A stretch of DNA of 64,000 nt, taken from contig NC_088716.1 in NCBI RefSeq assembly GCF_963576615.1, positions 43,495,910 through 43,559,909 on the forward strand, written 5' to 3'. This DNA comes from Watersipora subatra (lineage: Eukaryota). How positions within the stretch are numbered: the stretch's first letter is position 1; every line of letters begins with the position of its first letter. The translations under genes and the position numbers were made by a program. The notes under the pieces are model-generated. The model ran no database searches, was not told the DNA's origin, and saw nothing but the letters and a program-made list of their open reading frames with translations. This document shows positions 20,701 through 57,245 of the stretch, piece by piece.

Positions 20701-23700
20701 AAAAATTATTGCGTGAGAAATGGGTTTTATGAGCAAACTACCAGAGGTCCATCCATTACCTTCGGCATATTTAATGTGGAAATGTAGGCCCACTCCGGGC
20801 AATGCCTGGCTCAATTCGCAGTCTTGGAACTTTCATTTTCCATATAAAAGCACCACAATCTATCTGATGAAAAATGCAAGAACGCGCCTTTCCTTGTTAA
20901 ATCACTTAAATGTCACTATTAGAATAAAAACACCTTGAAGCAAGAAATTGGGCTCAAAAATTTTAACGAACAATAAAATTATATACAGTAGTAAAACTTA
21001 CTTCTAGATGTTCCCATGATCGACCTTTAAGCTTTAAACTTTTTTAATTAACTTGTTTGAAAAATAAAAATTGAAATAGCTGAAATGTTCGATACGCAAT
21101 ATAAAACTAGAAGTCACATCATGTAATCTTTCACAAAAAAAGAAAATTGATGGTTAACCAATCTAAATCAAGTAGCAAAACATGGTCTGGGCAGATACGG
21201 CTCTAAACGTTTACACAGAACCAATAAAGTTAGGTGTCAATAAGACTAGATATTAAGTGAGACAGACAAACAAAATTTGAAGTCACCTCATAGACATCAT
21301 CTGCTTGAACAATGGTTAGGGTCAAAGACTTTTGTTAAACAAAGCATTAGAGTCATTTACTGATTGTCACATGGAACCACGAGAATCATTGCAAATTGAA
21401 AGGGCAGCCAGAAACTTTGTAAAAAGTTGTCTGAAGAGGGAAAAGATCATCTAGAGAGGAATTGCTCATTCCTAACATTAAATAATAAAACTAGTTTATT
21501 CAATGGCTGACTTGGCAGTCTGAGAATGTCAGAGACTATAAACTGGCATAATTAAGACATGAAAATTCTTGATATGCAGTTTTAAACAAAAAATAATACA
21601 TTGACACTGACCGATGTAATAAATAATTTATTTACCAAATAAAAATATACAGTTAGACTGATATAAGAGTAAATACTTATAACATGAGGTCATGTGATTG
21701 AGCAGCTCTTTGTGCTCACTGATTGGCTGGCAGTCACACTACTTATTTTAATCTAAACCATCAGTAGGCCTGGTGACGCTTGGGATGTTTCCTTATCAAT
21801 CAGATACCCTAAAGGTGAGTGTTTAGGAAGCTGGTTCATAGGAACCAGATGGAGTTTTGAGACCAAATACTTTAGTGACTTGACTAAATAAAAAAGTATA
21901 TGCCGGTGAAGTTTGGAAAACATCAGCCAGTAAACATCCACAATCTTTTCAAGAATATGATAAATAATAACAATGAATAGAGAAGTACTCTGGACAAAAA
22001 CTGAACGAACCTGTCACGGGTGCTGATCCCCGGGCCTTAGGAGGAGCATTCCAGCGCCGATCCACTAAATAGTAAGAAGACATATTATATGAGTAAAATT
22101 ATTACACAGAAGTAATTATACTCTACTAAACATAATTAGACTAACACAAAAGTAATGCATGATACAGACAGCAAAGACAGTGGCTTTATAAACACATGAA
22201 TGATGCTATAACTAGGTGGTAATAGCCTTAGGACCTCGATAGAGTCAGGTAATAATCATGCATATGATGATCACTCTCTCTTACGCTACAGATATCGAAT
22301 ACCGTTAAGTATTCGAGCAACAATAACTCGAGCTGACATTTCGGTGAAGAGTTAGTTTATTGGTTGGCTATGTGCCAAAGCTTAAGTTTATCCAAATCCT
22401 TAACAAACAAACACAACTCCCTTTCCCCATCAGCTTCTATCACGCATAAAGTTGTGTAATCAAGCAGATTATCTTCATGTCCACCAATCACCTGACTGCT
22501 GCCCCAACTCACTTCAATCTAACAATCACCTGACTGCTGCCCCTACTCACTTCAATCTAACAATCACCTGACTGTTGCCCCAACTCACTTCAATCTAACA
22601 ATCACCTGACTGTTGCCCCAACTCACTTCAATCTAACAATCACCTGACTGTTGCCCCAACTCACTTCAATCTAACAATCACCTGACTGTTGCCCCAACTC
22701 ACTTCAATCTAACAATCACCTGACTGTTGCCCCAACTCACTTCAATCTAACAATCACCTGACTGTTGCCCCAACTCACTTCAATCTAACAATCACCTGAC
22801 TGTTGCCCCAACTCACTTCAATCTAACAATCACCTGACTGTTGCCCCAACTCACTTCAATCTAACAATCACCTGACTGTTGCCCCAACTCACTTCAATCT
22901 AACAATCACCTGACTGTTGCCCCAACTCACTTCAATCTAACAATCACCTGACTGTTGCCCCAACTCACTTCAATCTAACAATCACCTGACTGTTGCCCCA
23001 ACTCACTTCAATCTAACAATCACCTGACTGTTGCCCCAACTCACTTCAATCTAACAATCACCTGACTGTTGCCCCAACTCACTTCAATCTAACAATCACC
23101 TGACTGTTGCCCCAACTCACTTCAATCTAACAATCACCTGACTGCTGCCCCAACTCACTTCAATCTGTTAATCACCTGACTGCTGCCCCAACTCACTTCA
23201 ATCTATTAATCACGTGGCTGCCTGGCTTTATGCCTGCTATGATTGATGTGTTCTATTTACATAATGTAGGAATGAATGGGTTGACAGGAACCTAATACAG
23301 GGTCAAGATGTGACAATAAATATTTTAAAATCTAAAATATCTAACAATTTCACCATTCAAGTATTTAGACGCTAAAATTCACACACCAAGTTTCTTGCCA
23401 CAACCTTTACCAAGCCGAAGATCTTTGAGATTCATGGAGGTGTTTTTCTATGACAACCACTATGATATTATTAGATCATATATGTTAACATGTTAATATG
23501 TTATATCTACATTAACTTAACAAACAGTTATAAACTTTTAACAGAAGAGTCATCTCATCAAATTTAGAAATATACCAACAAGTTATTTAACCGTTTTTGA
23601 GATGTTAACAGTTAATACCAGCACTTCCAACCAACATACATTCTTCCTTCTCTTCCATTACCCCCATAAAGATAACGTTACCAAACAATGCTGACGAATA

Positions 23701-27924: not shown

Positions 27925-28305
27925 CTGTTATTATTATTATTATTATATTATATGGCTTTACTATTATTATTACTATTATATGGCTTTACTATTATTATTA
28001 TATTATATGGCTTTACTACTATTATTACTATTATATTATATGGCTTTAGGGGCCTACTATTATTATTATATTATATGGCTTTACTATTATTATTATATTA
28101 TATGGCTTTACTACTATTATTACTATTATATTATATGGCTTTACTACTATTATTATTATATTATATGGCTTTACTATTATTATTATATTATATGGCTTTA
28201 CTACTATTATTACTATTATATTATATGGCTTTACTATTATTATTATATTATATGGCTTTACTATTATTATTACTATTATATTATATGGTTTTACTATTAT
28301 TCAAC
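27925..28305. repeat. Expansion of ~50-bp units (tatatggctttactattattattat-like), present only in copy B.
   Basis: The copy A ortholog (17790-17815) has a single unit. Produces the artefactual poly-Leu/Tyr ORFs 27768..28315. Confidence 0.85.
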
Positions 28306-29406
28306 TAGCCCTTAATAATGCCTGTGAGATAATGCCTGCAGCTTGTTCCAAGCTGAATAAATTTTAGCTTGGCTTTCAGTTTACAGAAACCCGAAATACT
28401 ATAGTAAATACAAAAACCAACACAAACATATAAACACAAAAACATAAAACACAAAAGATAATTAACTAAATTATTATAATTTCTCCTAAGAATGTTAGCG
28501 AGCATCAACAGATTTTTAGAGCCTGCTTAGTTGATAGACTAGTTCTCTAGAACTAGTCTCTAAGTTCTAGAGAACTAAGAGACTGTATCGCGTCTCTTTC
28601 ATGCATGGTGAGAATGTTTTCGGTGAGCAGCATTTTGGCGTCTTCGTTATTTCCATGTACGTAATAAGCATACTGACTGCCAAATTTTAATCCAAGCAAA
28701 AAATTTGTTGAATTGGTATGGTGAAATAAGATTCGTATGGCGAGGCAGAAAAATAATCATGTTCCAGTTCGTCAGGTGTAAACTCATATAACAGGGTAAT
28801 CGTATCCTGAGGGTGCCAATGATATCTGTATTAACAAATCCCACACTTTCATCATAAGTCTGTCTGTTAGTCCGTGTAGGTATCATGTTTCCACATTCTT
28901 GGCTGATTTCATCCAAACTTCACACGCATATGTGACAGGTGACATATGTGACAGGTGACATATGTGACAGGTGACATATGTGACAGGTGACATATGTGAC
29001 AGGTGACATATGTGACAGGACATATCATTATCAATACAAATGAGGTCAGATAACAAATTATTTTACAGCCCTATGTAACAGAAAAATTTCTCAGCTTTTC
29101 AATACTGTTTTCGGAATTGGAAATAGTGCCATCGGTGCACAATTGAAAAGGTGCCGTTAGTCAATATGGTCAACATCAAAAAAACTGAGAAATTTGTTTC
29201 CAAAAAAGATGGATTGGATTTTAAATAGTATCATCTATTTATGTTTAGGGAGGTCATTTCAACCGCACCCTACGAGCATTACATTTTTATGAATGTTAGA
29301 AATGGCTTGGCTTCACACAAGTTTAAGCCACATTGTTAATTAGACTTTGAGAGGCTATCGTGCACTATATGAAATGCCTCATTTGTATTGAAAATTATAC
29401 GACCTG

Positions 29407-29914
29407 CATACATGCCAAGTCTCCCGGTTTGGCCGGGACCCTCCAGTTTTTTAAGTCAGTCTCCCTTTTGCACAAAATCTCCCGTTTTCCTCCAGCTTTT
29501 TCAAATAAAAGTAGTGGTTTAATTTTTTTCTTTGCCGTTCTCCTTTTGTTTACTAGTTGTGAGCCCTCATCATCATACAAAGTTAGCAACAATGAAACAG
29601 ATCGCTATTAAACCGTATGTTTGCCATAAAACCTGGGCTATTTAGATTTAGCAACATTGATGTCTAACGATTTGCTCTACAGTTTTTCATCAATAAACAA
29701 AGATTATACATGGAGCTGTGACATATCGTTGGCAAACGACCATGACCTCACATTGATAGTAGAGTACCTGAACATTAAATAAAATCGTGAAAGGGCCTCC
29801 TATGTAAGTACCAATGAAGAAAAAAAACTTCACAAAGAAATCTAGGCTTCAGATTCAACTACTACATTTACCGTCAATCTCATGCTTTTTTTTCTCAACT
29901 ACTTGGCAAGTATG
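29407..29914. mobile_element. Non-autonomous hAT-like MITE (508 bp) with 14-bp TIRs (catacatgccaagt ... acttggcaagtatg) and a perfect 8-bp TSD, acgacctg.
   Basis: TSD at 29399-29406 and 29915-29922. An empty site in paralogous copy A (~20235, 'gatacgacctgtcacat') carries a single acgacctg. An 8-bp TSD is characteristic of hAT elements. There is no transposase ORF. Confidence 0.75.
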
Positions 29915-31929
29915 ACGACCTGTCACATGTGCTTCGTGCCCTCTACCAGGTCGCTAAAAGTATTTAGTTTCAAAACTCAGTCTGGTTCCTGGAAACCGTC
30001 TGGCCAAAGAAAGTCAGTCTGGTTCCTGGGTACTGTCCTATCAAACACCCACCTGCAGGCTATCTGACTGATAATGAAAGAAATTCTGAGCATAAGCGGG
30101 TCGACTGCTACAGTAAGCCAGAAGGTAATCGATAAGTGCAGGTAATACAGTGTCAGACTGCTAGGCTGAATGTCATGAGTTCGAATCCCGCGCAAAACAA
30201 ACTTTTATGAAGATGATAGAAGAACTTGAATTATTGACTGTATTATGTATTCAGTGTGACGATTTTAAGCAAAATTAGAAGATAGTCAGAGTTTTGTAAG
30301 TAATAAACTGTCTTCCTGCTTAGCAGAATATCTTTACTAGCCTAGGACACTTTTGCATTCGCGTCATCTAACTTTCAAATTTTCGCGGAGTCATTCATCT
30401 CGCGAAAATTTCATGAGCGAAACTAAACTATCATAACGAACGAGCGAAAACGCGAACTTAAATAGCTTTGTTCATTGATATCCACAAGAAAATCATCTAA
30501 TTAGAAATGCAGGTAACCTTTGTGTGTGGTTGGGCTCGTTGGGCAATTTCTGCTAAACTCATTATAGCTAATACGCCGACTGAGCAGCGTGGCAAAGCAA
30601 ATTGAGATAACAAGTTCTTTTGGAAAAGCAGGCCTGTATTCTCTGGTTGCAAATTGGGGCAGCTAATGTTAGGCGACTAGTTATGAGCATCTGGGGGTTT
30701 GGAGGGGCTGTATCAGCCCCCTCAACAGGTTTCTTTCATGTAGGGCCTCAACCGGGCATCTCACGTAAAGTTTTAAAATATTTTATCGGAAAGTATAAAC
30801 ATTGTTTCTTTAATTTGAGATTTGTTTGTTTTAGGTGATGTGACTGCTAGGACGTTTTCAGATTAAAACAGGCTAAGCTTGACCGCAGTTAAAACGCTCA
30901 GAAAAAAGACATCTTTTTTCTTTTGAGTGTTTCAACAAAGATCAATTTTGCCGATTTTATTTTTAGTTCATCCAAAGGTTTTTACGCTTTCGTTGGGCCA
31001 TTGCCAAATAGATGTTTGGTAAAACTTGACCTTTTGCAAACCTTTATAAAAGTCGTTAACAAAAATATTTTGCCAATCATGATAATAATGACGCCCAAGA
31101 ACTGTTAAAAGTTAACGTTTATCTCTATGGCTTGGAATAAAGTGATATTCTACAGCGATAAAAACCGTTCCCGTTAGACAAATAACTGTTCGAGTTAATG
31201 ATGTTGAGGTCGAATTATCTAAAGCACTTTATCATTACATGGGAACAGACCACAGAAATCCATTCGTGTTAACCAAGTGTTCGTGATAAAATTTTACATT
31301 CTATCCGAAGGCGAGTTCTCCGAGTTTGACTATACTTAGCCGCCAAAAATTCCTAAAAAGTTGGGGCGGCTCAGCCGGCCAGCTGTCCCAGGGAATACGG
31401 GCCTGTGGAAAAGCCAAGACAAATGAAGAAGATGATGATATTAGTTTAGTCACTGAATTTGTAACTGATGCGGATGAAAGTCTGGTAGGGAAAGTCATAA
31501 AATTGAATAATAATTATTGTAGCGATGAATTTTATTACCAACCAAAAACAATAACAACCTTGAGCCATGGCCACCACGTGCTATAAATACTTGAGATATA
31601 ATATTGGTGCCACATCAGCCACGGCGGGCAAGGGCAATGACCTAGACGTCATTGATAGTCCAAGAAACATATAGTAGCAAGCGATCAAATTGCATTGTTG
31701 ATCTCGCCCACACATTTCTACCCGCAATTCACAAATACAAACTAGTCTCAAATTGAAAAATTCTTTTACTAGTGAACTGGACCTGAGGAATCCAATTATG
31801 TTTGTTCTACTGCATTTATTTTCACATCCCTATATCTTCGCACTCATCAGATCCGCGAAATTAAGTTGTAGCGAAATTTTACTCTGTATGCTACTCACGA
31901 AAATAAATACTAGCGAAATATAAAGTGTC

Positions 31930-34900
31930 CGGGATATAATAGGAGTGGTACCCGTGATGTTAAAAATTATTGCGTGAGGAATGAGTTATATGAGCTGACT
32001 ACCAGAGGTCCATCCATTACCTTCGGCATATTTAATGTGAAAATGTAGGCCCACTCCGAGCAGTGCCTGGCTCGATTCGCAGTCTTGGAACTTTCATTTT
32101 CCATATAAAAGCGCCACAAGAACGCGCCTTTCTTGTTAAATCGCTTAAATGTCACTATTAGAATAAACACACCTTGAAGCCAGAATTGGGCACAAAAACT
32201 TAATGAACAATAAAATTATATACAGTAGTAAAACTTACTTCTAGTTGTATCATGTTCCCTTGATCGACCTTTAAGCTTTAGGATTTTTTTAATTAACTTG
32301 TTTGAAAAATAAAGTTTGAAATAGCTGAAATGTTCAATACCCAATATAAAATTATAAATCACATCATGTAATCTTTCACAAAAAAAAGAAAATTGATTGT
32401 TAACCAATCTAAATCAAGTAGCAAAACATGGTCTGGGCAGATACGGCTCTAAACGTTTAAACAGGACCAATAAAGTTAGGTGTCAACAAGACTAGATATT
32501 AAGTGAGATAGACAAAAAAAATTTGAGTTCACCTCATTGACATCATTTGTTTAAACAACAGTTAGGGTCAAGGACTTTTGTTAAATAAAGCATTAGAATG
32601 TTTACTGATTGTCACATGGAGCTACGAGAATCCATGGAATATGAAAGGGCAGCCAGAAACTTTATAAAAAGTTGTCTGAAGAGGGAAAAGGTCATCTAGA
32701 GAGGAATTGCTCATTCCTAACATTAAATAATAAAACTAGTTCATTCAATGGCTGACTTGGCAGCCATTGAATAAATAATTTGGTAAATGATTTATTTACC
32801 AAATAAAAATATACAATTAGACTGATATAAGAGTAAATACTTATAACATGAGGTCATGTGATTGAGCAGCTCTTTGTGCTCACTGATTGGCTGGCAGTCA
32901 CACTACTTATTTTAATCTAAACCATCAGTAGGCCTGGTGACTGCTTCGAATGTTTCCTTATTAAAGAATAGAGAAAGCATAATATTATTATGCTTTATTA
33001 GTTATCTTCAGGTGTTGACTGATGTTCTAAAAAAAGAATCAAGGAGATTGACCCACTAGAAGCTGAGATATAGCCAGCCAAACACAGGTCTACCTAATAA
33101 AGAATCAGAGGAAAACCCTTCGAAAATCCCGAAAACTGTGACGTATAAAATCGACTTAATGTTCATGTGCCGGAGTTGCGCACCCTTACCGCCGTTACGT
33201 ATAATGATTGTTTTGGCTACGAGATGTGAAACGCTTCTCGCGATAGTAAATAATTTACAGACTAGCTCTGGTTTCTCAGGAAAATCAAGCAAACATTGTG
33301 TGGTAAAGGCATTTACCCACAACCCCTCGCTGTGATTTTTCAAAACAGAAGAGCATATTTTGACTATTGTGCTTCAAATTTTAACTCGGTCTCCACGGAT
33401 ATGCTCCGAAGATCCTCTGTTCAACTAACGGCGCGTGTATGGTCTATATGCGACATCCGCGATTGCAGTTTGTTTAGAATAAGAAATGGGAATGTGAATT
33501 TTTGTTCATTCATCATTTTTCTACTGTGTATCTACTGCAGCATTTAGTTGATTTTCATTATTATCGTCACTATTAACAGACTGTAAGTTCACCACGGCCA
33601 TAATCTTAAAAAGAATAACTTGACCGTGCTGCTCTTGCTGTAAGAAAAGAAAACGATAATTTTTGATTTGATTTTTCTATTGATCTATTATCTTATCTAT
33701 GATTATTTTTTATGATTGATATAATAATCATAATGCATATTATACAAAATAATAATATAACTGCGTATAGAATAAATGATGTAGGCTAACTAATATAATT
33801 TGTAAAAAGTGATAGCAGAATGTTGCGAAATAATAGATGCGTGTAATTATTTTATTCTAAAACTAATCTACACGTCAGAGGGACTGGTTCGGAATTCTCA
33901 GAGCAATGATCGTTAGGCCCAATTTGATTGTTCTATACTTCCAGGGTTTAAACCAATTAAAACGCCGTGATTGTTATAGGAGAGCGCATTAGTTGGCTTA
34001 ATTGACCAATAGCACACAAGTCGATTTCATACGTCATATATCGATGATTACCAAAACACTTATGTTTTTTGGTAGACCTGTGTTTGGCTGGCTATATCTC
34101 AGCTTCTGCTTGGTCAATCTCCTTGATTCTTTTTTTAGAACATCAGTCAACACCTCAAGATAAATAATAAAGCATAATAATATTATGCTTTCTCTATTCT
34201 TTAATCAGATACCCTAAAGGTGAGTGTTTAGGAAGCTGGTTCATAGGAACCAGATGGAGTTTTGAGACCAAATACTTTAGTGACCTGACTAAATAAAAGA
34301 GTATATGCCGGTGAAGTTTGGAAAACATCAGCCAGTAAACATCCACAATCTTTTCAAGAATATGATAATGACAATGAATAAAGAAGTACTCTGGACAAAA
34401 ACTGAACGAACCTGCCGCAGGTGCTGATCGCCGTGCCTTAGGAGGAGCATCCCAGCGCCGATCCACTAAATAGTAAGAAGACATGTTAGATGAGTCAAAT
34501 TATTACACAGAAGTAATTATACTCTACTAAATATAATTAGACTAACATAAAAGTAATACATGATACCGACAGCAAAGACAGTGGCTTTATAAACACATGA
34601 ATGATGCTATAACTAGGTGGTAATAGCCTTAGGACCTCGATAGAGTCAGGTAATAATCATGTATATGATGATCACTCTCTCTTACGCTACAGATATCGAA
34701 TACCGATGAGTATTCGAGCAACAATAACTCAAGCTGACATTTCGGTGAAGAGTTAGTTTATTGGTTGGCTATGTGCCAAAGCTTAAGTTTATCCAAATCC
34801 TTAACAAACAAACACAACTCCCTTTCCCCATCAGCTTCTATCATGCATAAAGTTGTGTAATCAAGCAGATTATCTTTATGTCCACCAATCACCTGACTGC

Positions 34901-35340
34901 TGCCCCTACTCACTTCAATCTAACAATCACCTGACTGTTGCCCCAACTCACTTCAATCTAACAATCCCCTGACTGTTGCCCCAACTCACTTCAATCTAAC
35001 AATCACCTGACTGTTACCCCAACTCACTTCAATCTAACAATCACCTGACTGCTGCCCCAACTCACTTCAATCTGTTAATCACGTGGCTGCCTGGCTTTAT
35101 GCCTGCTATGATTGATGTGTTCTATTTACATAATGTAGGAATGAAAGGGTTGACAGGAACCTAATACAGGGTCAAGATGTGACAGTAAATATCTTAAAAT
35201 CTAAAATATCTAACAATTTCCCCATTCAAGTATTTAGACGCTAAAATTCCCACATCAAGTTTTTTGCCACAACCTTTACCAAGCTGAAGATCTTTGAGAT
35301 TCATGCAGGTGTTTTTGTATGAAACACACTACGTTGTTAT
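31930..35340 (+). repeat. Composite interspersed repeat, copy 2, interrupted by a nested TIR element and 3'-truncated at ~35340.
   Basis: Collinear with copy 1, except for the insertion at 32960-34205. Confidence 0.75.
32960..34205. mobile_element. Nested non-autonomous TIR element (~1.25 kb) with ~130-bp terminal inverted repeats.
   Basis: 32960-33095 is the reverse complement of 34070-34205 ('ttaaagaatagagaaagcataatattat...ccaaacacaggtctacc'). The element is absent at the homologous point in copy 1 (21775 'ttccttatcaatcagatacc') and copy 3 (40868). Its internal ORFs show no transposase motifs. Confidence 0.7.
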
Positions 35341-37559
35341 TGGAGCATATATAGGTAAGCCCTTTTATTATGGGAAACACAGAATTTCAGAACCTCCTAT
35401 TAAGATTTGACTGAAAACATACTGTAACGTGTAAGTTTACAACAAAATTCTTTATTTTCAGAATTTTCACATTTTATGCTATCATAAACTGCAATATAAA
35501 GAATATTAACTTGAAAACGACATTTAAATAAATGTTTTGCTGGCTGGTGGGGTTGCGACCTAGTGCATCCAGAAGTATCATTCAGTTTTATTGTTGTTGT
35601 TCTCTGTATAGAGATAAAATATAATTCTAAAATGCTCTCCAATTAAAATGAGACAACTTTTGTTACAGTTAAAACATAATTCGCAAGCATTTTAATCTTC
35701 AAACACCAGTTTTACCGTTACGAACACTTTCAAAATAGCGTCACGCTAGTCATTAAAATTTGTGATGATAGTACTAGGCTCGCTTGCAAAAATTATTATA
35801 ATTACATCACTACTCCATCCAGACAAACTTTTAGTAAAATAGAAAATTTGACACTTTCAGCCATTTTTACAATAATAACACAGGCATTGCAAAAAAATTT
35901 CATCACAGATATGACATTCTAATTCAACTATGATTATCACGCCATCAGCGCTAATTTAAAATTGTTCTGATCTCCAACTTCAACAATGAATAAAAGCTTG
36001 TTTGTTTTATACTTTATTTGAAAAATGGATCATACAGATAATTGTAAAAGAGATATTTGTAAATTGCTTCCTTTTAGTTTTAATAACAGAGACTAACCTG
36101 ATGCTTTTTTAAATCTAGTAATACTGATGAGGGACTGTATGAGCATTTAATCGTCTCAGTCGTTACTCTTTAATGTATAACTAAATTTCTGTTAGCGAGT
36201 TGCGATAAGAACAAACATCTAGACTGGTAGTAAATTATCATTTAAAATAAAGTTTTACATAATATACTATAAACTAGGTGCTTGTCTTGCGCTAATGATT
36301 AGATTAATTCGCTTTTAAAATATTTTTGTCAGTTGTTATTTCTTCTAAACAACGATCATGAATAGATAGGTAAATAGTAAGATAGTAAATAATGATTAAA
36401 TTAAATTAAATTAGGCTCAGATTACAACTGCTGTTAGTAAATATTTATTGCCCCATAATCTATAAATTATTTATTGTTATCGTTTCAAATGTTAGTTATC
36501 AACAATTTAATCAGTCACAAGAAGAGTTACTAATTTTTAGTTTGTGGAATTGGTAAAAAAACATATTTACATATCATTCATTGAATATAAATAGCTTTAT
36601 TGCCTGCAGAGTCTGTATATTGATGCAATTTTATTTGAATTAAAACTCTTCTAATTTTATAATAAATATGGTGTTAATTTCTAAACATCAACTAAACAAT
36701 AAGGTTTCACTTAGATCGGTTTAAGAATAAAGCACTATAATAGCTATGTAGGCTATGATGTATAATAAGCTACTACTCCAACTAAAATATATCATTTCAA
36801 ATAACTCTTTAAGAAGACTGCCATCTAAATTGACAGAAGGCAAGAGTTATCAAAAGCTTCGCAAAGAGCAGGAAGAATAAGCCAAGAACGACAGTCAGTT
36901 GTGTCATAACTATTAATACAATATGACTGAGAAGAGACAAGCTATGAGAGATGAAGTATTCAAAACACCGTAACAATGTACTATATTCCTGCAAGTCAGT
37001 ACACACAGGGTGTCACATCACACTGTGCTACCGAGTTCATTAGTGTCTTATGACTATCATGGTGTCTTTTTGTCACATGCATTTGCATCCCAATGAGACG
37101 CCACACAATCGTCAATATATAATGGACTAACTGGCCGATTTTAAACTTTTTTGAAGTTTTAAATAGATAAGATGTTGTATTATGACATATTAAAATTAGA
37201 GAATGTTTAAAAAACTTTGAAAAATGCACCAAAAATTTTCTGCAAGAATCTCATAATAGAAAATCTTACACATGTGTTACAACATAAAGTTAATAAATAC
37301 CTTCAACTTAATAGACAGTTACAGATATTTAACAGAAGAGTCAGTATCATCAAACAATTAGATTCATCCTATCAAATTTAAACATACCAACAAACTATTT
37401 AACAGGTTTTTAACATGTTATGTTTTTAACAGGTTACGAGATGTTAACAATACATACCATTAAGTTCTTCATATTCCTCTTCAAATTCATTCATTGAGTC
37501 CCCCCAATAGGTATCACACACTTTCATGGCTGGAGAGACAGATATATAATAAGTATATA

Positions 37560-38420: not shown

Positions 38421-40124
38421 ACAAACTTTGAGAAATATATATAGATATATAATCCTACGACCAAACACGAGCGGAGCGATTGGTTGGGAGATTTATGATA
38501 ATGCACATGTGCACAAAACTGCTGAAAAATTATCCGTTAACGGCCGTCGCAAACCCTTGTAATGAAATCTCATCAACAAATTTAACCATTTTTCTGTAAA
38601 GTCGTTTAAGTATAGTAATGATACAAAACACGTATAAACCTATTTAAATATGTTACCAAGACTTTGAAAGGTTACCACAAATGCCTAAACCTAACCCATC
38701 TGATCGGATTATAGATAAATAGACAGATTAATTTGGCCAAAAACCACGATAAAAACTTGACAATCTTCCTCTAATCAAAATTAAGACCGGCCAACAAAAC
38801 GCCAATAAGGCCGTGCAACAAATAGTAGAACTATTAAGTCGTGCACATTTCACGAGAAAAACGTGCACATTTCACCAGTCTATAGCACTGTCTACTTGCC
38901 GGAGGTTTCGGCAATTAACATAGGAGTACAGAAATCGTTTCATTCTTGCCTATTTCAATTTTTTCATTTTCAATTTCATTTCTGTAATTAACGTAAAAGT
39001 ACACAAAACTAATCGTTGCTTTTTTGCCGATTTCAAAGTAACTGACGTTTTGGACAATTATAATGAGTACTTTGGTATTCCAACTGAAGTCCGGAGCAGT
39101 GAAAGTAAAGGGAATGACGATGATATTTTTCCAACGAATCTTATAAGATTATTACGATGTTTAATTATAAGAATAATTATTTGATTTTATAAGGTTTAAT
39201 TATAAGAATAGTCATTCGAATTTAAAAGATCGAAGTATATAGTGACCGATGTTGGGCAATATGTCACTGTTATTATTTTTTCTAAATAAGTTTGTTAAAT
39301 AAATTTTCTAAAAATCTAGATAAATATCACAACTTCTTGATATTGGTTGTTATGACGCTTTAAAATGTAAACAATTGTGCATTGGTTTTCTATTATTACT
39401 GTATTAGTATATTAACATACCTGCCAACTCTTACGCATTGGGCGTGAGACTCACGCAATCACCCCAAATAAAAAAGTGAAAATGCGTGAGATTTTTGCCC
39501 CAATTTCCACAATTTTATATATACTATCATTGATACATCAATTGCCCCAAAACCAAATCTCAAGCATTGCCCCACTCTTGGGTTGGCAGGCCTGTATAGT
39601 AATAATATTGGTTATTCTAATAATATCAGTGCATTTTACTTCTAATATTGCAGTTCTCCTATTGCAGCGGGATGATATAAACATATAATCTTTTCCTTTC
39701 ATTATTGCTGTTTGTTATACATAATAACACCCAGTGCATTACAGCTACCATTGCAGTTATCCTATTGCACCGCAGTGCCATTTGACAGCTAATATTGCAT
39801 TTCTCAACTATCAGTACCCTTTCTTTTTTCCAATATCACTTTGGTCGTGGGCTGTATGACAGGGGAATTTCTAGTACACATTTTGTATTTGTCTGTCCAT
39901 CTGCCTGAGGCCAGGAGTAGAGGTTAAAACAAAATAATGCATTGTGCTGGACTTCAGTTTGTGGCATTCCACTTCGTAGACCGGAACACTAATGCTTGCA
40001 CCAATCAAAGGCATATAAGGATAATTATGTATTTATGTACAGTAGCTAAGCTTACCTCTAGGTTTACGACGCTCCCTTGATTGACTCATTTGACTTGAAT
40101 AATTTTGAATTGGCTTGCCTGAAA

Positions 40125-43100
40125 CATGAAGTTTGAATTAGCTGAAATGTTCAATACCCAATATAAAACTAAAAGTCACATCATGTAATCTTTCATAGGA
40201 AAAGAAAATTGATTGTTAACCAATCTAAATCAAGTAGTAAAACATGGTCTGGGCAGATACGGCTCTAAACGTTTACACAGGACCAATAAAGTTAGGTGTC
40301 AACAAGACTAGATATTAAGTGAGATAGACAAACAAAATTTGAGTTCATCTCATTGACATCATTTGCTTAAACAATGGTTAGGGTCAAGACCTTTAGTTAA
40401 ACAAAGCATTAGAGTCATTTACTGATTGTCACATGGAGCCACGAGAATCATTGCAAATTGAAAGGGCAGCCAGAAACTTTGTAAAAAGTTGTCTGAAGAG
40501 GGAAAAGATCATCAAGAGAGGAATTGCTCATTCCTAACATTAAATATTAAAACTAGTTCATTCAATGGCTGATTTGGCAGTCTGAGAATGTCAGAGACTA
40601 TAAACTGGCATAATAAAGACATGAAAATTCTTGATATGCAGTTTTAAACAAAAAATAATACATTGACACTGACCGATGTAATAAATAATTTATTTACCAA
40701 ATAAAAATATACAGTTAGACTGATATAAAGAGTACAAACTTATAAAATGAGGTCATGTGATTGAGCAGCTCTTTGTGCTCATTGATTGGTTGGCAGTCGC
40801 ACTACTTATTTTAGTCACACTACTTATTTTAATCTAAACCACCAGTAGGCCTGGTGATGCTTGGGATTTTTCATTATCAATCAGATACCCTAAAGGTGAG
40901 TGTTTAGGAAGCTGGTTCATAGGAACCAGATGGAGTTTTGAGATCAAATACTTTAGTGACCTGACTAAATAAAAGAGCATATGCCGGTGAAGTTTGGAAA
41001 ACATCAGCCAGTAAACATCCACAATTTTTTCAAGAATATGATAAATAATAACAATGAATAGAGAAATACTCTGGACAAAAACTGAACGAACCTGTCGCAG
41101 GTGCTGATCGCCGGGCCTTAATAGAAGCATCCCTGCACCGATCCACTAAATAGTAAGAAAACATGTTATATGAGTCAAATTATTACACAGAAGTAATTAT
41201 ACTCTACTAAACATAATTAGACTAACACAAAAGTAATGCATGATGCCGACAGCAAAGACAGTGGCTTTATAAACACATGAATGATGCTATAACTAGGTGG
41301 TAATAACCTTAGGACCTCGATAGAGTCAGGTAATAATCATGTATATGATGATCACTCCCTCTTACGCTACAGATATCGAATACCGATAAGTATTCGAGCA
41401 CCAATAACTCGAGCTGACATTTTGCTGAAGAGTGAGCTTAATGGTTAGCTATATGCCAAAGCTTAAATTGATCCAAATCCTTAACAAGCAAACACAACTC
41501 CCTTTCCCCATCAGCTTTCTATCACGCATGAAGTTGTGTAATCAAGCAGATTATCTCTATGTCCACCAATCACCTGACTACTGCCCCAACTCACTTCAAT
41601 CTAACAATCACCTGACTGTTGCCCCAACTCACTTCAATCTAACAACCACCTGACTACTGCCCCAACTCACTTCAATCTAACAATCACCTGACTGTTGCCC
41701 CAACTCACTTCAATCTAACAATCCCCTGACTGCTGCCCCAACTCACTTCAATCTATTAATCACGTGGCTGCCTGGCTTATGCTTGCTATGATTGATGTGT
41801 TCTATTTACATAATGTAAGAATGAAGGGCTTGACAGGAACCTAATACAGGGTCAAATTGTGACAATAAATATCTGAAAATCTAAAATATCTAACAATTTC
41901 ACCATTCAAGTATTTAGGCGCTAAAATTCTCCCACCAAGTTTCTTGTCACAGACACCCTTTACCAAGCCGAAGGTCTTTGAGATTCATGTAAGTGATTTT
42001 TTGCATGACAACCACTATGATATTATTGGAGCATATATGTTATATCTACATTAACTTAACAAACAGTTATAAACTTTTAACAGAATAGTCATCTCATCAA
42101 ATTTGGAAATATGCCAACAAGTTATTTAACGGGTTTTGAGATGTTAAAGGTTGACTTGCAACAAAATTCACATTACCGTTATTTGATATGAAAAGATTCA
42201 CCATGTCTTACTCTGTTGTGTTGTAGGTGCAAAATATGTGGAAAGGTGATTACAAGCTCTTAAAAGCTCAAAAACGAACAGAAAATCGCGGCCACACGAG
42301 ACCGCCGTAGTTTGGATTCCCTTTCCAAAACGGCTCAAATGTGATGTAGTTGTGAGAGATGGTTTCCGTTTACACTTTCTTGCAACCTTAATCGTCGAAA
42401 TATTTTCACAAATATACTTCACGCATTCAATAAAACTATGTCTATTGATCTTACGCGTCTGTTTTATTGTCATCGTAATGCTGGCACTTTTAGCACTGAT
42501 ATCTTATAACTTACCGTGAAAAATTCGTTAAACTTTTTAACCTTACCTCGAATGAGTACATATCATTGTCTGATAATCGTGACGAGCCTGTTGGTCACCT
42601 GTGATAATCGAAAAGTGCTGCAAAAATTATTTGCGAAGTATTGGGTCACGTGATCAGATTACGACTTGACGATTGAATAATGCCGGAACAAAACTGTAAA
42701 GTAGCGAACATCTATATTCGATACGGGGTCTTCGGTGAAACCCGAAGTGTTTGTCATAAACTAGTACTGCGATAAGTTTTATATTGAGCTTTGTATTGGC
42801 CTTTCAATTAACGTGAGAATATACGTGACAAGACGATAACCAAATTTCGTGGTTACGTCATCGAAATAAAGAGAGTCCAATCTACGGCGGCTTTTCGTTT
42901 TTGAGCTTTTAAGAGCTTGTAATCACATTTCCACATATTTGGCACTTACAACACAGCAGAGTAAGACATGGTGAATCTTTTGATACCAAATAACTGTAAT
43001 GTGAATTTTGTTGCAAGTCAACCTTTAACAGTTAATAACAGCACTTCCACCCAGCATACATTCTTCCTTCTCTTTCATTACCTCCATACAGACAATCTTC

Positions 43101-43160
43101 GTAGTCCTCTACCGTTTCCTCCGCACAGTCCATAACAGCAGCATCATACATTTCCATATC
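40125..43160 (+). repeat. Composite interspersed repeat, copy 3, 5'-truncated and interrupted by a nested TTAA-flanked element.
   Basis: Collinear with copy 1 (21070-23770), except for the insertion at 42148-43024. Confidence 0.75.
42148..43024. mobile_element. Nested non-autonomous TIR element (877 bp) flanked by TTAA, i.e. piggyBac-type target duplication, with ~140-bp TIRs.
   Basis: TTAA at 42144-42147 and 43025-43028. The ends 'aggttgacttgcaac...gttgcaagtcaacct' are perfect reverse complements. Empty sites 'gatgttaacagttaata' are present in copy 1 (~23600) and in the homologous 37415 region. The internal ORF 42198..42473 has no transposase similarity. Confidence 0.7.
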
Positions 43161-43174
43161 TGGAGAGAAACACA

Positions 43175-43608
43175 GTATATATACATACATACATACATAC
43201 ATACAATATATATACATACAGTATATATACATACAGTATATATACATACAATATATATATACATACAGTATATATACATACAGTATATATACTGTATGTA
43301 TATATACTGTATGTATATATACATACAGTATATATACATACAATATATATAAATACAGTATGTATATATACATACAATATATATACATACAGTATATATA
43401 CATACAGTATATATACATACAATATATATATACATACAGTATATATACATACAGTATATATACTGTATGTATATATACTGTATGTATATATACATACAGT
43501 ATATATACATACAATATATATAAATACAGTATGTATATATACATACAATATATATACATACAGTATATATATATATCTACAGTATATATATAGTATATTA
43601 ATTTTCGG
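43175..43608. repeat. (TATATACATACAG)n-type satellite.
   Basis: Same family as 23781-24062. Source of the artefactual ORFs 43032..43692. Confidence 0.9.
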
Positions 43609-44569
43609 CGTCGCACAGGTAATAAAAACCTTTTTGCACAGAAAATTTACATTTAACCAACGTATGCAATATCTACCATTCCAACTTTTCAATGAAGGTT
43701 TTTGTTCATTTCCATGTACTATGTTTATGTTTGTGTACCATTACTTTTGTGTGATTCATACTGTATCGGCTGCAGTACCTACTACAGCTTTATACTGATT
43801 GCAATAGTCTTGTTGGCCATGTGAGTTGAAGCAATTTTCTTCTCGTATGGGCACATATTCTTCTTCTGGTATGGCTTCACGCATAGCGCTAGCTGAAGTG
43901 TTAAGCGTGAAGCCATGAAAGAGTGACAGATGTTTGACAAACGATCTTTCAAATTTAAGCAAAAATTTAGGCAAAAAATGAGGTACAAAAGAAGTAAATG
44001 CCGTAATAAATACAAAATTAGTATGAAATAACAGAATATTTGTAATTTTCCCAATGATCATGTAAAAAAGCTTCCACACATTTTTAGAGGGCTGCCTAAG
44101 ATATTTATATGTACGATTAGAAGGCTAATTTAGAGGAGAGGCCTGTTGTTCACGCTAAACCAAGCCAAGCTAGTCACTTAAACATCATCTTTTCTAATGG
44201 TCAACAGTCACCACGACTCAATCCGTAAAACCGACTCGGCTAAAACAATTTGCTAGTCAACAGGAAAAATCTTGACTAATTTTTAAAAATATTGTCTATA
44301 GCAATCATCTGTTCTCAAACTGATAATTCTCAGCATTTTGTGTAGAGGACAATACCCCGAGCAAAATAGTCATCACATAGTGCAAATTACTGCACATTAA
44401 AACTATGGACACCGTCAAAAACTGATAAACATCAGGTAGAACAACAGAAGGTCCTCAACAGCCAATTGCTGAGTTCAAATAATAGGTTATCCACCAGCTT
44501 ACAATTACTATCCCCATACAAAAAATTTATTTATTTATACAGAACACATCTGTGATTCACAGTAGGCTT

Positions 44570-44960: not shown

Positions 44961-45467
44961 CCACTGAGCTATGCAGACATAAATGTGTTGCACTTATCAT
45001 ACAGTGTATACCGTACGCACACGGTGCAAAAGTGCAGGCCAAATATGCACTTTTGATTATTAACTAATATTACCTTTTGCATTGGTTATTTTTTGAAGCT
45101 GTTGAAAAGCTAATTTTTGCTACCACTACTTATATTTTTAATTTGTAATATTTAAATGTGCCGTTTCAATTTCAAATGTTGGTTATATTTCTAGTTCCGG
45201 TTTTCCGTAATAGTGGAGAAGCAGCCCAGAGCTATCTTTCACTCTTATTTATATAAATATGGAGAATAAAGTAAGACCAGATTCTTGGCCAGAATTTTAT
45301 GCTGAGTTTAATGATATAGTTTCTACACCTATAACTGGTCACATTTAGAAGTTCTAGGACGATTTTATTTTGAGAGAGGACAACTCCTAAAATTTCGGAA
45401 AATTGGTATTTTTCTGTTTGAAATTACTGCTACGAGTCAAGTTTTCACATTTAAGAGTTATAAAAGC

Positions 45468-47029: not shown

Positions 47030-48875
47030 GGCAGAACAACTGAAGCGCTTACTACAACGAGACTGCCCAACTTTGATTATGCATGCACAGACAAAGAAAG
47101 AAGGTATAAATGTCTACCATCCATCAGCAGTTGATCATTGCAGCGATGAAGACACTGATACATACACAACAGATGATGCTGCCTCACAGTACTCCATGAG
47201 CCCTCTCAAGTTAGGTGGGACACACAATTTACAAACTCCCCTCCAATCAGCCTACTACACTCAAATCATGTTAAGCAATTCTTTAGATGAACACTCCTAC
47301 AAGACGCCATGGCCTTTAACATCTGCCCATGTCAATCTCAAATCATTTGAAGAATCTGTACCTGAGGAAATTTTGCAATTTGTTGGTACACTCCTGCAAT
47401 CTCGCTCAGGGATGCCTATCCCACATTCTGATAAAGTCAAAGTCACTTCAGTTTGCCAGGATTTGGTTATGCTCATGTCAAAGGGTCAGCTTACTACTCC
47501 AAAAGCGTTGGCATTGGGGCTAGTTGTCAAACATTTGACTGGATCTAAAGAGCTGATAAATATTCTTCATAACATGGGGCACTGTGCATCATATGACAGC
47601 ATACAGAGGTATGAAACATCACTTGCTATGCACTCACTTGAAAACCAGTCAAAAGTGCCAGACAACTTTGAGTATGGACAACCCATAGTGGTGGTATGGG
47701 ATAACATAGACTTCTTGGAAGCGACGAGAACGGGCCACAATACTACACAACACACAAATGGGATATTACTTCAACTACGTTTCCAAAAACCCAAAACCAA
47801 AACAGACAAACAAAATCGACCACGCGGTGGAACTAGAACACTAATCCAATTTACTGAATCAATAGACCACCTGCCCACATATTCAAGAACAAACCCTGCA
47901 CATTTGAATGCAGTTGAGATCTCTCCCATACAAAGAATTCTTGACACTGACATTCTTGAGTTCCAGTTTGCCCTTGTACGCAGGCAAAACGAATACAGCA
48001 AGCCTAGCTGGACTGGTTTCAATAAGATGTTTAGGCAAGCTGAAAGCTCTCCCAAAACTGAGATTATGTACCTGCCAGTGATACAGGCTGCCCCTACTGA
48101 TATTGAGGTTGTAAATCAAGTTCTTCAGAAAAGTATCGATGACGCTGACAAGTTTGGTATAGAAACTGCAGTAGTAGTGTTTGACCAAGCTATATATTGT
48201 AAAGCACAAACTATTCGCTTCCTCAATCCCATTCTGATGTCAAGACTTGTCTCTAGATTAGGAGATTTCCACACAGTGATGGCTTTTCTTGGTGTGATAG
48301 GCAAAAGGTATGGTGATGGTGGGTGGGCTAAAATAATCACAGAATCGCAATGTATCGCTGAAGGAAGCCTGAAAGGGGTGATCAATGGTCACAGTTACAA
48401 TAGGTCCATCATGGCACACAAACTTTGCATGGAAGCACTGTATGACCTATTGTTGGATGAATTCGCTGAAAGTCTTGAATCCTCTAGTGCCCTTGACTTT
48501 TTTAGTTTGTACGTTAGTAGAGCTGTTTCCAATCACACTGAATGTAATCAATCTGAACTCGCCCACATGAATCAGGCATTCCAAGAGTTTATAGTCACCT
48601 CTTCAAAAGGCAACCCCACATTTAGATTCTGGGTAGAGTATATTGAAATGGTGACACAACTGCTAAGTTTTGTCCGCGCCACAAGGGAATCTGATTGGAA
48701 CCTCCATGTCAACTCACTACATAGACTCTTGCCATGGTTTTTTGCATACGACCACTCTAACTATGCAAGGTATGGGCACACTTTACTATATGGAGATGAC
48801 GCAGCTGGCAAAGACTCACCCCCTAATTTACCAAGCAATGACAGATCACCGTGGTTATTCTACCTTTCAATATGA
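47030..48875 (+). CDS. Exon 5, the large central domain (~600 codons) of the transposon-like protein. Motifs seen: VVVWDNIDF, AVVVFDQAIYCKAQTIRFL, LGDFHTVMAFLGVIGKRYGDGGW, HKLCMEALYDLLLDEF.
   Basis: Acceptor 'tttatttatag|GGCAGAAC' at 47030. The frame is continuous with ORF 47073..48875. The open frame ends at 48875, but homology continues in another frame, so a frameshift lies near 48780. Confidence 0.6.
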
Positions 48876-51016
48876 GCATCACCGCCCATTCTCCAGCGTT
48901 GCCTGTGATATGGCGATAGAACAGACTGTCAATCGGAATTCTAAATCACAGGGAGGTCTCATTGGATTCACAAAAACCCAATCTGCCTCACAGAGATGGA
49001 CCATGGCGCATCCACAAAGGACAGCTGTGCACACAGAAATAAAAAACCTTCTAGAATTGGACTCCACTACTCAGACAAGCACGGCTTGTCAGAATCAGCA
49101 TGGAAAGCTGACGAAGATATAAGATGTATCATCAAAGAAATCATATTAGCTCGAATCAACCTATTCAAGCACAAATGTAAAAACCTTGTCTCTATCGTCA
49201 GTAGAGTGGAGGCTTCAACTGACATTGCCTATGATTTACAAAATGCAAGACAGATCGGAGAAAAGCAGTTTCAAGATTTTGTCACCAAACGGATGGCAAC
49301 TCAAGAAGTAGAATTCAATGCACCAATAAAGGCAAAGAAACTGAAAGATTTTGCTTTGAGTCAAAGTGCTAAGAAGACTTCTAGTAAGAAAAATCTACAG
49401 TGTACAGGACGGATCTTTGATCGTCTTCTTGTAATCAGCCAGCAGAGGAACATCGATCTTAGAAAAGTACTTTCTTATTCCCTTGGCAATGTAAGCTGGA
49501 GCCTGGCAAATGCGGATGGATTGATGATGAAGACAGCTAAGTCTACCCTTATGACAGCATTGGAGAAAGAGCTAGAGCCACATCCAACATGTTACACAAA
49601 ATTTGAAAACCTTCCAAAATTTGATGCTGTGGTCATTGATGGAATGGCTGAGATTCAAGCTTTGAAACCCCCAGCAACATTCGGAATGGTTGCTAGTGTC
49701 CTATTGAAAAGGCTAGCATCAATCGCTACATCATATGGCTTTTCTCGGGTGGATTTTGTCTGTGATAGCTATCCTGAGGCCAGCATCAAATCAACAGAAT
49801 GAATGCGTCGTGGATTGAAAGGTAGTCAAAAGGTGACAATTTTTGGATCGAATCAAATGGTACCAAAATGGTCAGACTTCTTGGCAGAGAAGCTGCCAGG
49901 AAGTTAACAAAGAAGTTTTGGTGGCTTTCTTGAGTAAGGAGTGGAGCAGTGCACAGATCAAACAGGATCTTGATGTATACATAGCATTTTCTTCCAAGTG
50001 CAACAAGATCAGTTTTCAAATGGATGGGAACACTAGTAATAAAATTATAGTGAGTCTAGCATCAGATCATGAGGAAGCTGACACAAGAATGATAGCACAT
50101 ATAATGTCTATCATGGAAGACTAAGGATCGAACTGTACGGTGATGATAAAGTGTCAAGATACAGATGTGTTTATGATTTGTATATCTTTGGTACATGAGC
50201 TTCCATCAGATCGATTGTACTACTTCTGTGGGAAGAAAGAACGAATGCGATACATACACATTGGAAATGTATCAGGTATTCTAACACCGCCCTACTGCCA
50301 AGCACCTCTGGGTCTACATGCACTCAGCGGTTGTGATAGTATCAGCGCATTTCATTCAAAGGGAAAGAAATCCTTTTTGAATTTGCTCAATCAGAACCCT
50401 GAGTTCATCAACGTATTAAGCTCTTTGGGCTTAGAGTTTGAGGTTGATGATGATACTCAGCAGGCTTTATAATATTGACACAACTGAAAAGGTCAATGAA
50501 GCAAGTTATTTGGTTTATTGCTCTCCCTCAAGGATTTCCCAAGCTAACCTTCCTCCAACCCAAGATGAATTGAGGCTGCATGTAATGAGAGCTGGTTACC
50601 AAGCAGCCATATGGCGTAGAGCTGTGCAGCCAACAATTGATCCACCCCTACCCACTAATCATGGCTGGACTTTGTATAATGGAAATCTCAAAATCACATG
50701 GATGACACAGAACCCAGCGCCTTCTGATGTGATGAAAGACATGTTTTGTTGATGTAAGACAGGATGTTCATCCAATAGATGCCAGCGCCAGAAGGCTGGA
50801 CTCAAATGTACAGATATGTGCCAGTGCAAGGACTGTGGAAACAAAACTGGTGTTGAAGAAGAGAATACAGATTCTGATGAGGATGTCGGTAAAGCTAGGT
50901 TATTATACATCAAGTATCAGGTTATTTCTTTGAAAGTTTGCAGAAAATTTCCACTCATGATACCTTTCCCTGATACCAGACAGAAAAAAAATTCTACATT
51001 TTGGTCCAATCTTTAA
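48670..51016 (+). pseudogene. Degraded C-terminal half of the same gene, carrying the PIN/FEN-like 5'-nuclease motifs and the Cys-rich CXC-like tail.
   Basis: ORFs 48670..49122, 48996..49802, 49843..50124, 50140..50472, 50438..50752 and 50816..51016 form one continuous protein once frameshifts at ~48780, ~49090 and ~50470 are allowed for. There is an in-frame TAA at 50122-50124 (SIMED*GSNCTVMIKCQD) and an in-frame TGA at 50749-50751 (MFC*CKTGC). The motifs are SLASDHEEADTRMIAHI, VMIKCQDTDVFMICISL, ALSGCDSISAFHSKGKKSFLNLL and CKTGCSSNRCQRQKAGLKCTDMCQCKDCGN. Confidence 0.6.
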
Positions 51017-52448
51017 ACAGCTGTGACAGTTTTTGATTCATTTTTCCTTCTTGTAGATGTATAGGAGATAACACACAGTCATGGTGCTACATCAGACCGA
51101 CAGACAGACAAATTATGTAATCCATTATATTATATAATATCGTGTATAAGTTCAAATCTATGCAACTTAGAAAGATATAAATATTAAATCTGAAATATAC
51201 TACAAATTCTGATCTTGATTGATGTGTTGCAACCTCTTTGCTTTCCCCAAATGATGAACTGGAGAAATTTGAAATTATATCATTAAATTCATGTATTACA
51301 TAATACATTATGAAAATGTTGTGGCCAGTTGAGAGAATTGTCAATTACATACTCAGAACAAGCTTCAAATTTTAGTCCAAAAACACATGGAATTTAGTGG
51401 TATTCACAATTATATTTAATACATACTTCAAGTTACGCATCTAACTTACATAATAATATCATGTAATATAAATTCAAATCCATCCGTTTTTGAAATCTTA
51501 TAATATGATATTTGAAATCAGCTACAAATTTGGATCTAGTTTGATGTATCACAGTCCCGCTCTGTTCTGGTCGAACTTGTAAATTATAAAAATTATATTA
51601 TTAATTTATTGTATCATATAATACATTATAATTAGTCTGGTGGCTAGTTTAGAAGTGTAGAAACTAGATATTCAGAATCAGCATAAAATTCTGGTCTAGA
51701 ACATTATTTCAGCATATTGTCCATCCTAATATAAAATAAATCAATTTTTTTGAGCACTTTATGGTAGGCTGCTGCTCCGCTATAAGGTTTGATTGCTAAA
51801 TCGGTAAAGGAAAATATTTTTCACGCGGTTAATTGTATTATCTCGAGTAGGAATAGCCTTTACATTCTCTTTCCGTTCGGTCAGACAAAATACCAGACAA
51901 AGACAGTCCGATATCTCATTTTTAGATTTGTACCAGTATCAAGAGGTACCAGTATTGTCGTATTGAAAGTTTTGATAGATTGCGTCTGCTGGAACAGTAA
52001 CCTTTTTATACACACACACGCACACATTTCTATGCAATAATTGTTATTATTAATTCAACATATTCAGGACTTTTATACTACTTTCTCAGTTCGTAATAAT
52101 TGTATCATTACCAAACCATCTTTTATTGTAATCGTAGCTAAACAGGCTTAATTTAGCTATTACTAATAATTATTTCATATTTATATTTAAACACTTTTAT
52201 AGTTGTTTTATTTCGTTCCTTAATTTATTTTACCTGCACAAAATTTTTTCCTCATAATTTGAAATTTAAAAGTTACAGTTGTTTGACAAAGTTTGAAAAC
52301 CTTTACAGTTTTATTTTTTCTCTTAATTTATTTAAACTGCACAAAACACTTTTCACATGATTTGAAAGTTAGAATGTTAACTGTTGTTATATGTTAAATA
52401 AAAATGATTTTTCTGTGCAAAGAATTTTATTACCCGGGCAACAACGGA

Positions 52449-52705: not shown

Positions 52706-54134
52706 TACGTTATTACTACAAGTAAAACAACAATAATAGTTATCATTAATTCTTTCGCAACGAAATGTTTTTACCGAAACAAATTGGCTCATATAAGTTT
52801 TCATAACATTTGACCAAATTAATTTGCACAAAATTTAACATCATCTGATCCAATAAAAAAGTCACAATTGTGTTGCAGAAAGAGTTCAGCCACCTTTTGT
52901 TCTCTTCATACTACCATGGTTGACAAGTTGAGCATGTTCTGAGTCAGACGAGTTGAGTTACCGCTATTACTATAGCTTACATCATTATCGTTATTGTTAT
53001 TATTACTTCATTGCTTACATCATTATTATTACCTACCTACTTATTACCTACCATTATTATTACCATTTCCTAGCAATTAAGAAGCGATATGATAGGCTAA
53101 TTATACACAGCGGACACTCGTCTTACAATTTTAATTCATTGTAGTGATGTCATCGTCTAGTAAAAATGTCATGTAGAGGGGTATAGAAACCCATAGTAAC
53201 TATCCAATAGAAACACCCCTGGTAAAAATCATCAAAATTCTATATACGTAGTGTACATATTAAAAATTAGTAACAAAATAGTATATTAACCTTAGTAACC
53301 ATAACTACCTACAGTTACTTTAGTGTATTTAGTGGTTATGATCAGCAATAAATTTAATATTACAATGTACAGTGCACCCTTAGGATACGGTTTTAATCCA
53401 AACTTGATACGAATTTCCACTTTTTATCACTAAAACTTAACGCAATTTGCTTATGGCTTCGTTTTCAATATAATGTTAGTCGATCTTATTAAAACTTTTC
53501 TCAACATAATGCGGCAAAAAAACCCAAACGATGCCGTTTTCGCAAGAAGTGGATTTTTGTTAGCAGGTTAAGAGAAATTGTCTGACCATTGCCCTTCTGT
53601 TTGAAGGGATCGCAACTCCAACTTTGTGATTGGTTTAATGGGAAAATATTCCCGTTTTACACGTGAGAATTGCCACACTGGAAGAAACCGGTCATTGTGT
53701 TTCTTTCAAACAACATTTACGGCAAACATCAATTTGGTGTCTTCGCTATTTTGACGTACGTAATAAGCACACCAGCTGCTAAATTTGAACTCAGGCGAAA
53801 ATTTTGTTGAATTTTTATGGTGAAATAAGATTCGTATGGTGATATGAAAAAATCATCATGTTCCAATTCGTAAGGTGACAAAATCATATATCAAGGTTAT
53901 CGTACCCTGAAGGTGCACTGTATAAAAGTATAAACAACTAACTACAAGAAGTATGACACAATAATCTCGGACATGGCAATAAGTAAGACATGCATCACAT
54001 TACACCAATGAAGATGAACAACTTGAAAACTATTTGCGGAGCTCATGTGTCGGCATTTGAAAATTGTGGGTTCTCAATGTAGCTCCAAACTTAATGGTAT
54101 GTAATCAATGCAAGAGTGTAACAGAAATGTTACG

Positions 54135-56734: not shown

Positions 56735-57245
56735 TCAAAGCAGTGATGGTACTCAGATCAAAGACGTTGTGTGAAACGATCTTCACGTCGTTATGTTGTG
56801 TACAACAGAATAGTTTTCTTTGAAGTTGCTAACTTGCTATAAAAGTGAACTTCTAGCGTTGGTAGATTAATTCAGTGAAATCATTCAGTCATTTTTCCGT
56901 CCTCTACCCTTTCTTTCCTGTAAGTCACCTTGCTCACCAAACCGTTTGATGGTGTTACAAACAGTACTTTTAGCAACCTTTACTTCTTTGGTAATCTCCC
57001 GCTGTGATTTGCCTTCCTGGTAAAGGTGTACGATGACTGCTCGCTTTGCTTCTGTAAGATGACGAGGCATGATGTCGATGTTTGACTGAATGAATCTACC
57101 AACGCTAGAAGTTCACTTTTATAGCAAGTTAGCAACTTCAAAGACAAATTATTCTGTTGTGCAAAACGTAACGACATGAGGATTGTTTAACGCAACGTCT
57201 TTGATGTGAGTACCATCACTGCTCTAGTTGAACGAAGTTGAACAA
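56735..57245 (-). mobile_element. Internally deleted Tc1/mariner relic: ~140-bp TIRs flank a 61-aa remnant of the transposase N-terminal paired-like HTH.
   Basis: ORF 56885..57070 (-) is MPRHLTEAKRAVIVHLYQEGKSQREITKEVKVAKSTVCNTIKRFGEQGDLQERKGRGRKND, the classic Tc1 N-terminus. 56750-56880 is the reverse complement of 57070-57225 ('cagtgatggtactcagatcaaagacgttg'). No DDE domain remains. Confidence 0.7.

Follow-up and report, generated by a model that had tools for sequence, protein, structure and literature searches.

A TTAA-flanked, non-autonomous transposon with Kolobok-like termini in a paralogous segment of Watersipora subatra

A 64,000-nucleotide stretch of the Watersipora subatra genome (the window) carries an 877-bp element, here called E1, that was found inserted between two copies of TTAA in one of three paralogous segments. 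It is almost certainly a non-autonomous cut-and-paste transposon with a specificity for TTAA. Judged by its termini and target-site duplication (TSD), it would be an old, non-autonomous transposon of Kolobok type, a reading to which we give a probability of about 70%, and the piggyBac label attached to it in the original prediction is probably wrong. The family is new, while the kind of element is already known.

Structure of E1 and its empty site

The boundaries of E1 were set by alignment to an empty paralogue and by the end of similarity to ten other copies, and the features of the insertion are as follows.

42148..43024, no strand: E1, non-autonomous terminal inverted repeat (TIR) transposon, 877 bp, termini 5'-AGG...CCT-3'
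42144..42147, no strand: left TTAA of the target-site duplication, read directly
43025..43028, no strand: right TTAA of the target-site duplication, read directly
42148..42278, plus strand: left TIR core, 131 nt (TIR profile, E=4.6e-45)
42894..43024, minus strand: right TIR core, 131 nt, with an inner extension at 42868-42893 (TIR profile, E=7.3e-46)
23605..23608, no strand: unoccupied TTAA target in the first copy of the paralogous segment

The three paralogous segments (17261-24535, 26418-35352, and 40033-44054) are 88-97% identical to each other, with the order rearranged in the second copy and with transposon insertions that differ among them. E1 begins with AGGTTGACTTGCAAC and ends with GTTGCAAGTCAACCT, and the filled site in the third segment reads gatgTTAA-AGGTTGACTTGCAAC...GTTGCAAGTCAACCT-TTAAcagttaata. 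At the empty site, in the first segment, TTAA stands once, within gatgTTAAcagttaata. BLAST aligned 23017-23608 to 41567-42147 at 90.6% identity, and this alignment stops exactly at 23608, opposite 42147; only one TTAA is present at the paralogous empty site, and both flanks of the E1 insertion could be aligned to the empty paralogue. The comparison involves one empty site only, since the homology of the second segment ends before the insertion point. These alignments bear out two claims made earlier from the sequence, that a nested TIR element of 877 bp lies between two TTAA and that its target TTAA is single in the first copy of the repeat.

The two TIR arms are perfectly matched over their first 29 nt and identical at 124 of 131 core positions (94.7%). 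The left arm contains 20 extra bases beyond the 131-nt core, after which pairing resumes for about 26 nt (42299-42324), and the family consensus has an uninterrupted TIR of about 177 bp. The predicted TIRs of about 140 bp with perfect ends were thus right as to the ends but not as to the length: they measure 131 bp, and about 177 bp when the indel is spanned. In the window the 24-nt terminus of E1 has exactly two occurrences, inverted relative to each other, and shuffled sequence contained none. Searches of the window with this 24-mer, allowing up to three mismatches, and with a profile built from aligned TIR copies of the E1 family returned the two arms and no further copy of E1.

E1 has no coding capacity. 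Its longest open-reading frame is 91 aa, has no match in Pfam, and has as its sole database relative another copy of the same element, in agreement with the original statement that no transposase is carried. A SINE or tRNA-derived origin was also considered and dropped, as Rfam gave only sub-threshold chance matches on E1 and the window contains no tRNA genes according to ARAGORN. If transcribed, the TIRs would fold into a very long stem (z = -18 compared to shuffles), but so long a stem is simply what paired TIRs produce and does not point to a function at the RNA level.

A multicopy family with a TTAA target

Further copies of E1 were reached through a protein index, using peptides encoded by the element. 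With the 91-aa reading frame as query, a single ENA protein was recovered, and its contig (L001) contains a full second copy that aligns to E1 from TTAA to TTAA at 88.5% identity. Each TIR of E1 also contains an outward-reading frame that starts with MVNL[LF]I[PS]NN[CG]NVNFVASQPL and runs on into the adjoining flank. The TIR-encoded peptide MVNLLIPNNCNVNFVASQPL was used as a query for copies of the family, and a concatenated query of three 20-aa variants of the TIR peptide recovered eight more proteins with differing C-terminal tails, encoded on contigs L002-L009. Such a short TIR-encoded peptide is a reusable handle for retrieving copies of a non-coding transposon from a protein-indexed database. 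All nine contigs belong to one ENA metagenome assembly, ERZ6864376, and they have further interspersed repeats in common with the window, indicating that their source is this organism or one closely related to it.

The window copy and the ten copies on these contigs make up 11 independent insertions whose flanks are all different: four full copies (871-911 bp), six partial copies, cut off at the end of a contig or incomplete for other reasons, and a 287-bp derivative with an internal deletion. Pairwise identity between copies is 82-94%. Divergence from a rough 910-bp consensus is 5-10% across the copies (6.4% in the case of E1), and on this ground the family is considered old and not recently active. 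The 287-bp derivative (L008, 7771-8057) keeps the family ends and lies between two TTAA; about 30 nt remain of its left TIR, the right arm is intact, and it could be either a true MITE-sized offspring or the product of a deletion after insertion. A second copy on L004 (2053-2754) loses similarity after element position 691, which either a truncation or a further insertion could explain. This broken copy was followed as an entry to a longer autonomous element and then set aside, as the remaining 1.6 kb of L004 adjoining it contained no TIR, no long open-reading frame, and no similarity to the compared sequences. No Pfam matches were found in the flanking reading frames of the ENA contigs, and the exact 24-nt terminus had no match in JGI metagenome contigs or GTDB genome contigs, which are collections without the host genome. 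A literature search with the terminal sequence returned unrelated papers only.

The target site was read from the ends of these copies. TTAA adjoins 13 of the 15 readable ends among the 11 insertions, the other two being TCAA and TTCA, and in the five insertions that could be read at both ends, both neighbours are TTAA, with the single TTCA as the exception. At the fifth base outward from the ends g, c, t, and a all occur with no preference, and 15 of 16 TIR arms start with AGG, the remaining one with AAG. Since TTAA is found at nearly all ends, the next base is variable, and a single TTAA is present at the empty paralogue, TTAA is the real target and one copy of it was created on insertion. 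The recurrence of TTAA at other loci, proposed as a check on the original prediction, was therefore observed, with two one-base variants.

The palindromic TTAA fits three forms of insertion: a 4-bp duplication with ends AGG...CCT, a 2-bp TA duplication with ends AAGG...CCTT, and a blunt insertion between TT and AA. The predicted TTAA-element-TTAA arrangement is upheld in that two TTAA are present at the filled site and one at the empty site, and the caution that came with it, that a TA duplication is formally compatible with the palindrome, was well placed and applies equally to no duplication at all; the target is TTAA either way. A target of TA alone is unlikely because the outer T and A are near-invariant. 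The 4-bp duplication is the reading with known precedent and the one we infer here, at a length that the palindrome itself cannot separate from 2 or 0 bp.

Superfamily assignment

Repbase sorts non-autonomous DNA transposons by their termini, TSDs, and TIRs (PMC4455052), with a rule that allows at most one mismatch over terminal positions 1-11, and E1 was compared to known systems on the same features. Duplication of TTAA is the classical hallmark of piggyBac (PMC2872659), while Kolobok elements also have TTAA-specific 4-bp TSDs and, unlike piggyBac, termini of the form 5'-RR...YY-3' (PMC9587614). These are the two described superfamilies that duplicate TTAA, as E1 does, so that a flanking TTAA pair is not enough to recognise piggyBac; it is the terminal bases that separate the two. 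The elements of the piggyBac superfamily and their MITEs have TIRs of 12-19 bp with a terminal CC[C/T]T that is reported as required for transposition (PMC2872659). E1 instead has ends AGGT...ACCT and TIRs of 131-177 bp, and its termini, 5'-AGGTTG...CAACCT-3', conform to the RR...YY pattern. Because E1 departs from the piggyBac termini and agrees with those of Kolobok, Kolobok is the preferred assignment, although the two-base RR...YY rule is a weak criterion.

The closest likeness is to Kolobok-related elements of Xenopus. Ten full-length Xenopus Kolobok elements have AGG or AG directly beside TTAA (PMC6004289), and the autonomous elements XKol-A2 to A5, with TIRs like AGGACATGTCAACCCC, combine the TTAA TSD with 5'-RR...YY-3' ends (AG...CT) as E1 does, but encode a transposase that E1 lacks (PMC6004289; PMC9587614). 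No transposase with ends matching those of E1 was found in the window. The long terminal direct repeats of the KolobokP lineage are absent from E1. Xenopus T2-MITEs (Xmix and others), which are defined by TTAA and a terminal AGGRR, resemble E1 in their TTAA TSD, in AGG beside TTAA, and in forming non-coding, multicopy families of long persistence (PMC6004289). This likeness is one of description; the terminal pentamer of E1 is AGGTT and therefore falls outside the stricter T2 motif, and the E1 family, at 877-911 bp and with TIRs of 131-177 bp, is longer than T2-MITEs and has much longer TIRs. With regard to the MITE label in the original prediction, E1 is non-coding and belongs to a family of at least 11 copies with TIRs and TSDs, and at 877 bp it is large for a MITE, the usual length being less than 500 bp (PMC2872659).

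The assignment made in the original prediction, a MITE of the piggyBac superfamily, would call for a piggyBac-like transposase that tolerates unusual ends, and we consider it unlikely. It is consistent with the TTAA target, and piggyBac-derived CMITE families of corals resemble E1 in having a TTAA TSD, a non-coding body, and mobility documented by comparison of empty and filled sites (PMC2872659). The CMITEs and piggyBac elements, however, start from CC[C/T]T and end in A[G/A]GG, with TIRs about ten times shorter than those of E1, which starts with AGG; these termini are described as a hallmark needed for piggyBac transposition (PMC2872659) and are exactly what divides Kolobok from piggyBac in the literature (PMC9587614). 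No match to the piggyBac transposase domain (PF13843) or to THAP was found among the 76 reading frames of at least 75 aa in the window after low-complexity filtering. In a genome-wide repeat library, the piggyBac label would lead to misannotation of the whole E1 family, and beyond annotation the significance of E1 is small.

Membership in some other or undescribed superfamily that is TTAA-specific, such as a Sola group, which has 4-bp TSDs and might share the E1 signature, or one with an uncharacterised transposase, is distinctly unlikely. This reading gains from the fact that E1 is classified by its TSD and a two-base terminal rule with no linked transposase, and a transposon-like coding region at 45.3-51.7 kb shows that the genome has poorly described elements. 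The putative ends of that region are, however, unrelated to those of E1, do not start with AGG, and have no TTAA flanks at the putative inverted repeat. The E1 terminus was found nowhere else in the window and in none of its open-reading frames, and the combination of TTAA with AGG fits a described superfamily with no extra assumption.

A Tc1/mariner-like element with ends AAGG...CCTT, a TA-only duplication, and a chance position within TTAA is very improbable. A TA duplication would formally fit the empty site, the terminal AGGTTG presumably resembles the starts of mariner TIRs, and a Tc1-like helix-turn-helix fragment is present in the window at 56888-57112. Tc1/mariner (Stowaway-like) elements duplicate TA with no further target requirement, which should leave the outer bases variable, whereas the outer T and A are present at 13 of 15 E1 family ends and their chance occurrence was estimated at roughly 0.1 per insertion; we know of no TA-duplicating superfamily that requires TTAA. 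Finally, a local palindromic rearrangement or assembly artefact, which might have been suspected from the single copy of E1 in the window, is refuted by an independent assembly, where the same ends recur in ten more copies whose flanks are unrelated.

Insertion history and the surrounding window

Under the preferred Kolobok-type reading, a DDE transposase carrying the Kolobok C/DxxH signature, encoded at some other locus, would bind the long TIRs of E1, excise the element, and insert it at TTAA, where a 4-bp staggered cut would be repaired to give the flanking TTAA pair; the 4-bp stagger and the identity of the transposase are inferred. E1 landed in one of the three paralogous segments, most simply after their duplication, since it is present in only one of the two paralogues that can be compared. 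Precise excision of E1 from the other paralogue is an alternative to later insertion that is compatible with the same pattern. What is now seen is a decaying copy.

A second non-autonomous element flanked by TTAA was found in the second paralogue only.

32965-34200 (with TTAA, 32961-34204): non-autonomous element, 1236 bp, TTAA on both sides, AG...CT ends

Its TIRs are about 137-144 nt long and 94-95% identical, and its ends are AGAATAGAG...CTCTATTCT (also given as AGAATAGAGAAAGCAT...ATGCTTTCTCTATTCT). The corresponding empty sites in the other two segments (21796-21799 and 40877-40880) both read TCAA, from which it appears that a C-to-T change probably created the TTAA target before this element inserted. 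E1 and this element share no sequence beyond chance, as their common k-mers were no more frequent than in shuffles. The presence of a second element with TTAA flanks and AG...CT ends in the window indicates that elements of this type have inserted here more than once, and as each of the two occupies a single one of the three paralogous segments, they most simply mark events after the segmental duplication. We regard it as doubtful, and very much so, that E1, and perhaps also the 1236-bp element, was mobilised by a TTAA-specific transposase outside both canonical Kolobok and canonical piggyBac, possibly one of an undescribed lineage or a piggyBac relative that no longer needs CCYT ends. Were this so, the known set of transposases that target TTAA, and possibly excise seamlessly, would be broader.

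The window as a whole has 35.8% G+C and is rich in microsatellites and transposon remnants, with one reverse-transcriptase element. Parts of a 38-bp tandem array are present in all three paralogous segments, the longest of them at 22485-23221. A 190-nt inverted repeat (26282-26471 and 28356-28535, 91.6% identity) encloses about 1.9 kb; either a further TIR element or the junction of an inversion in the second paralogue could account for it.

Between 45282 and 51701, same-strand open-reading frames interrupted by frameshifts, including one of 600 aa at 47073-48875, together with a cysteine-rich stretch at 50753-51013, look like a decayed DNA-transposon protein. Pfam gave only a weak DUF6589 match for this region. 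The named proteins closest to it, all uncharacterised, come from molluscs, echinoderms, a fish, and Hydra (genera Patella, Gigantopelta, Diadema, Antedon, Alosa, and Hydra) and are 30-39% identical; those of Patella and Gigantopelta, at 37-39%, are the best among them, and further contigs reach up to 60%. The region is bounded by an imperfect, putative inverted repeat (45282-45334 and 51649-51701, about 50 nt) that has no TTAA flanks. The region was considered as a source of the partner transposase of E1 and rejected, given its unrelated putative ends, the lack of flanking TTAA, and the weakness of the DUF6589 match.

Other mobile-element remnants were found further downstream. A reverse transcriptase of the non-LTR retrotransposon type (RVT_1, E=5e-26) is encoded on the plus strand at 59374-61582, followed by a reading frame with a zf-RVT domain. 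The fragment at 56888-57112, on the minus strand, corresponds to the helix-turn-helix of a Tc1/Sleeping-Beauty-like transposase (HTH_23, HTH_29, and HTH_SB matches). At 54131-56452, a long array of tandem repeats of roughly 33 bp gives rise to spurious open-reading frames of 370-485 aa on both strands.
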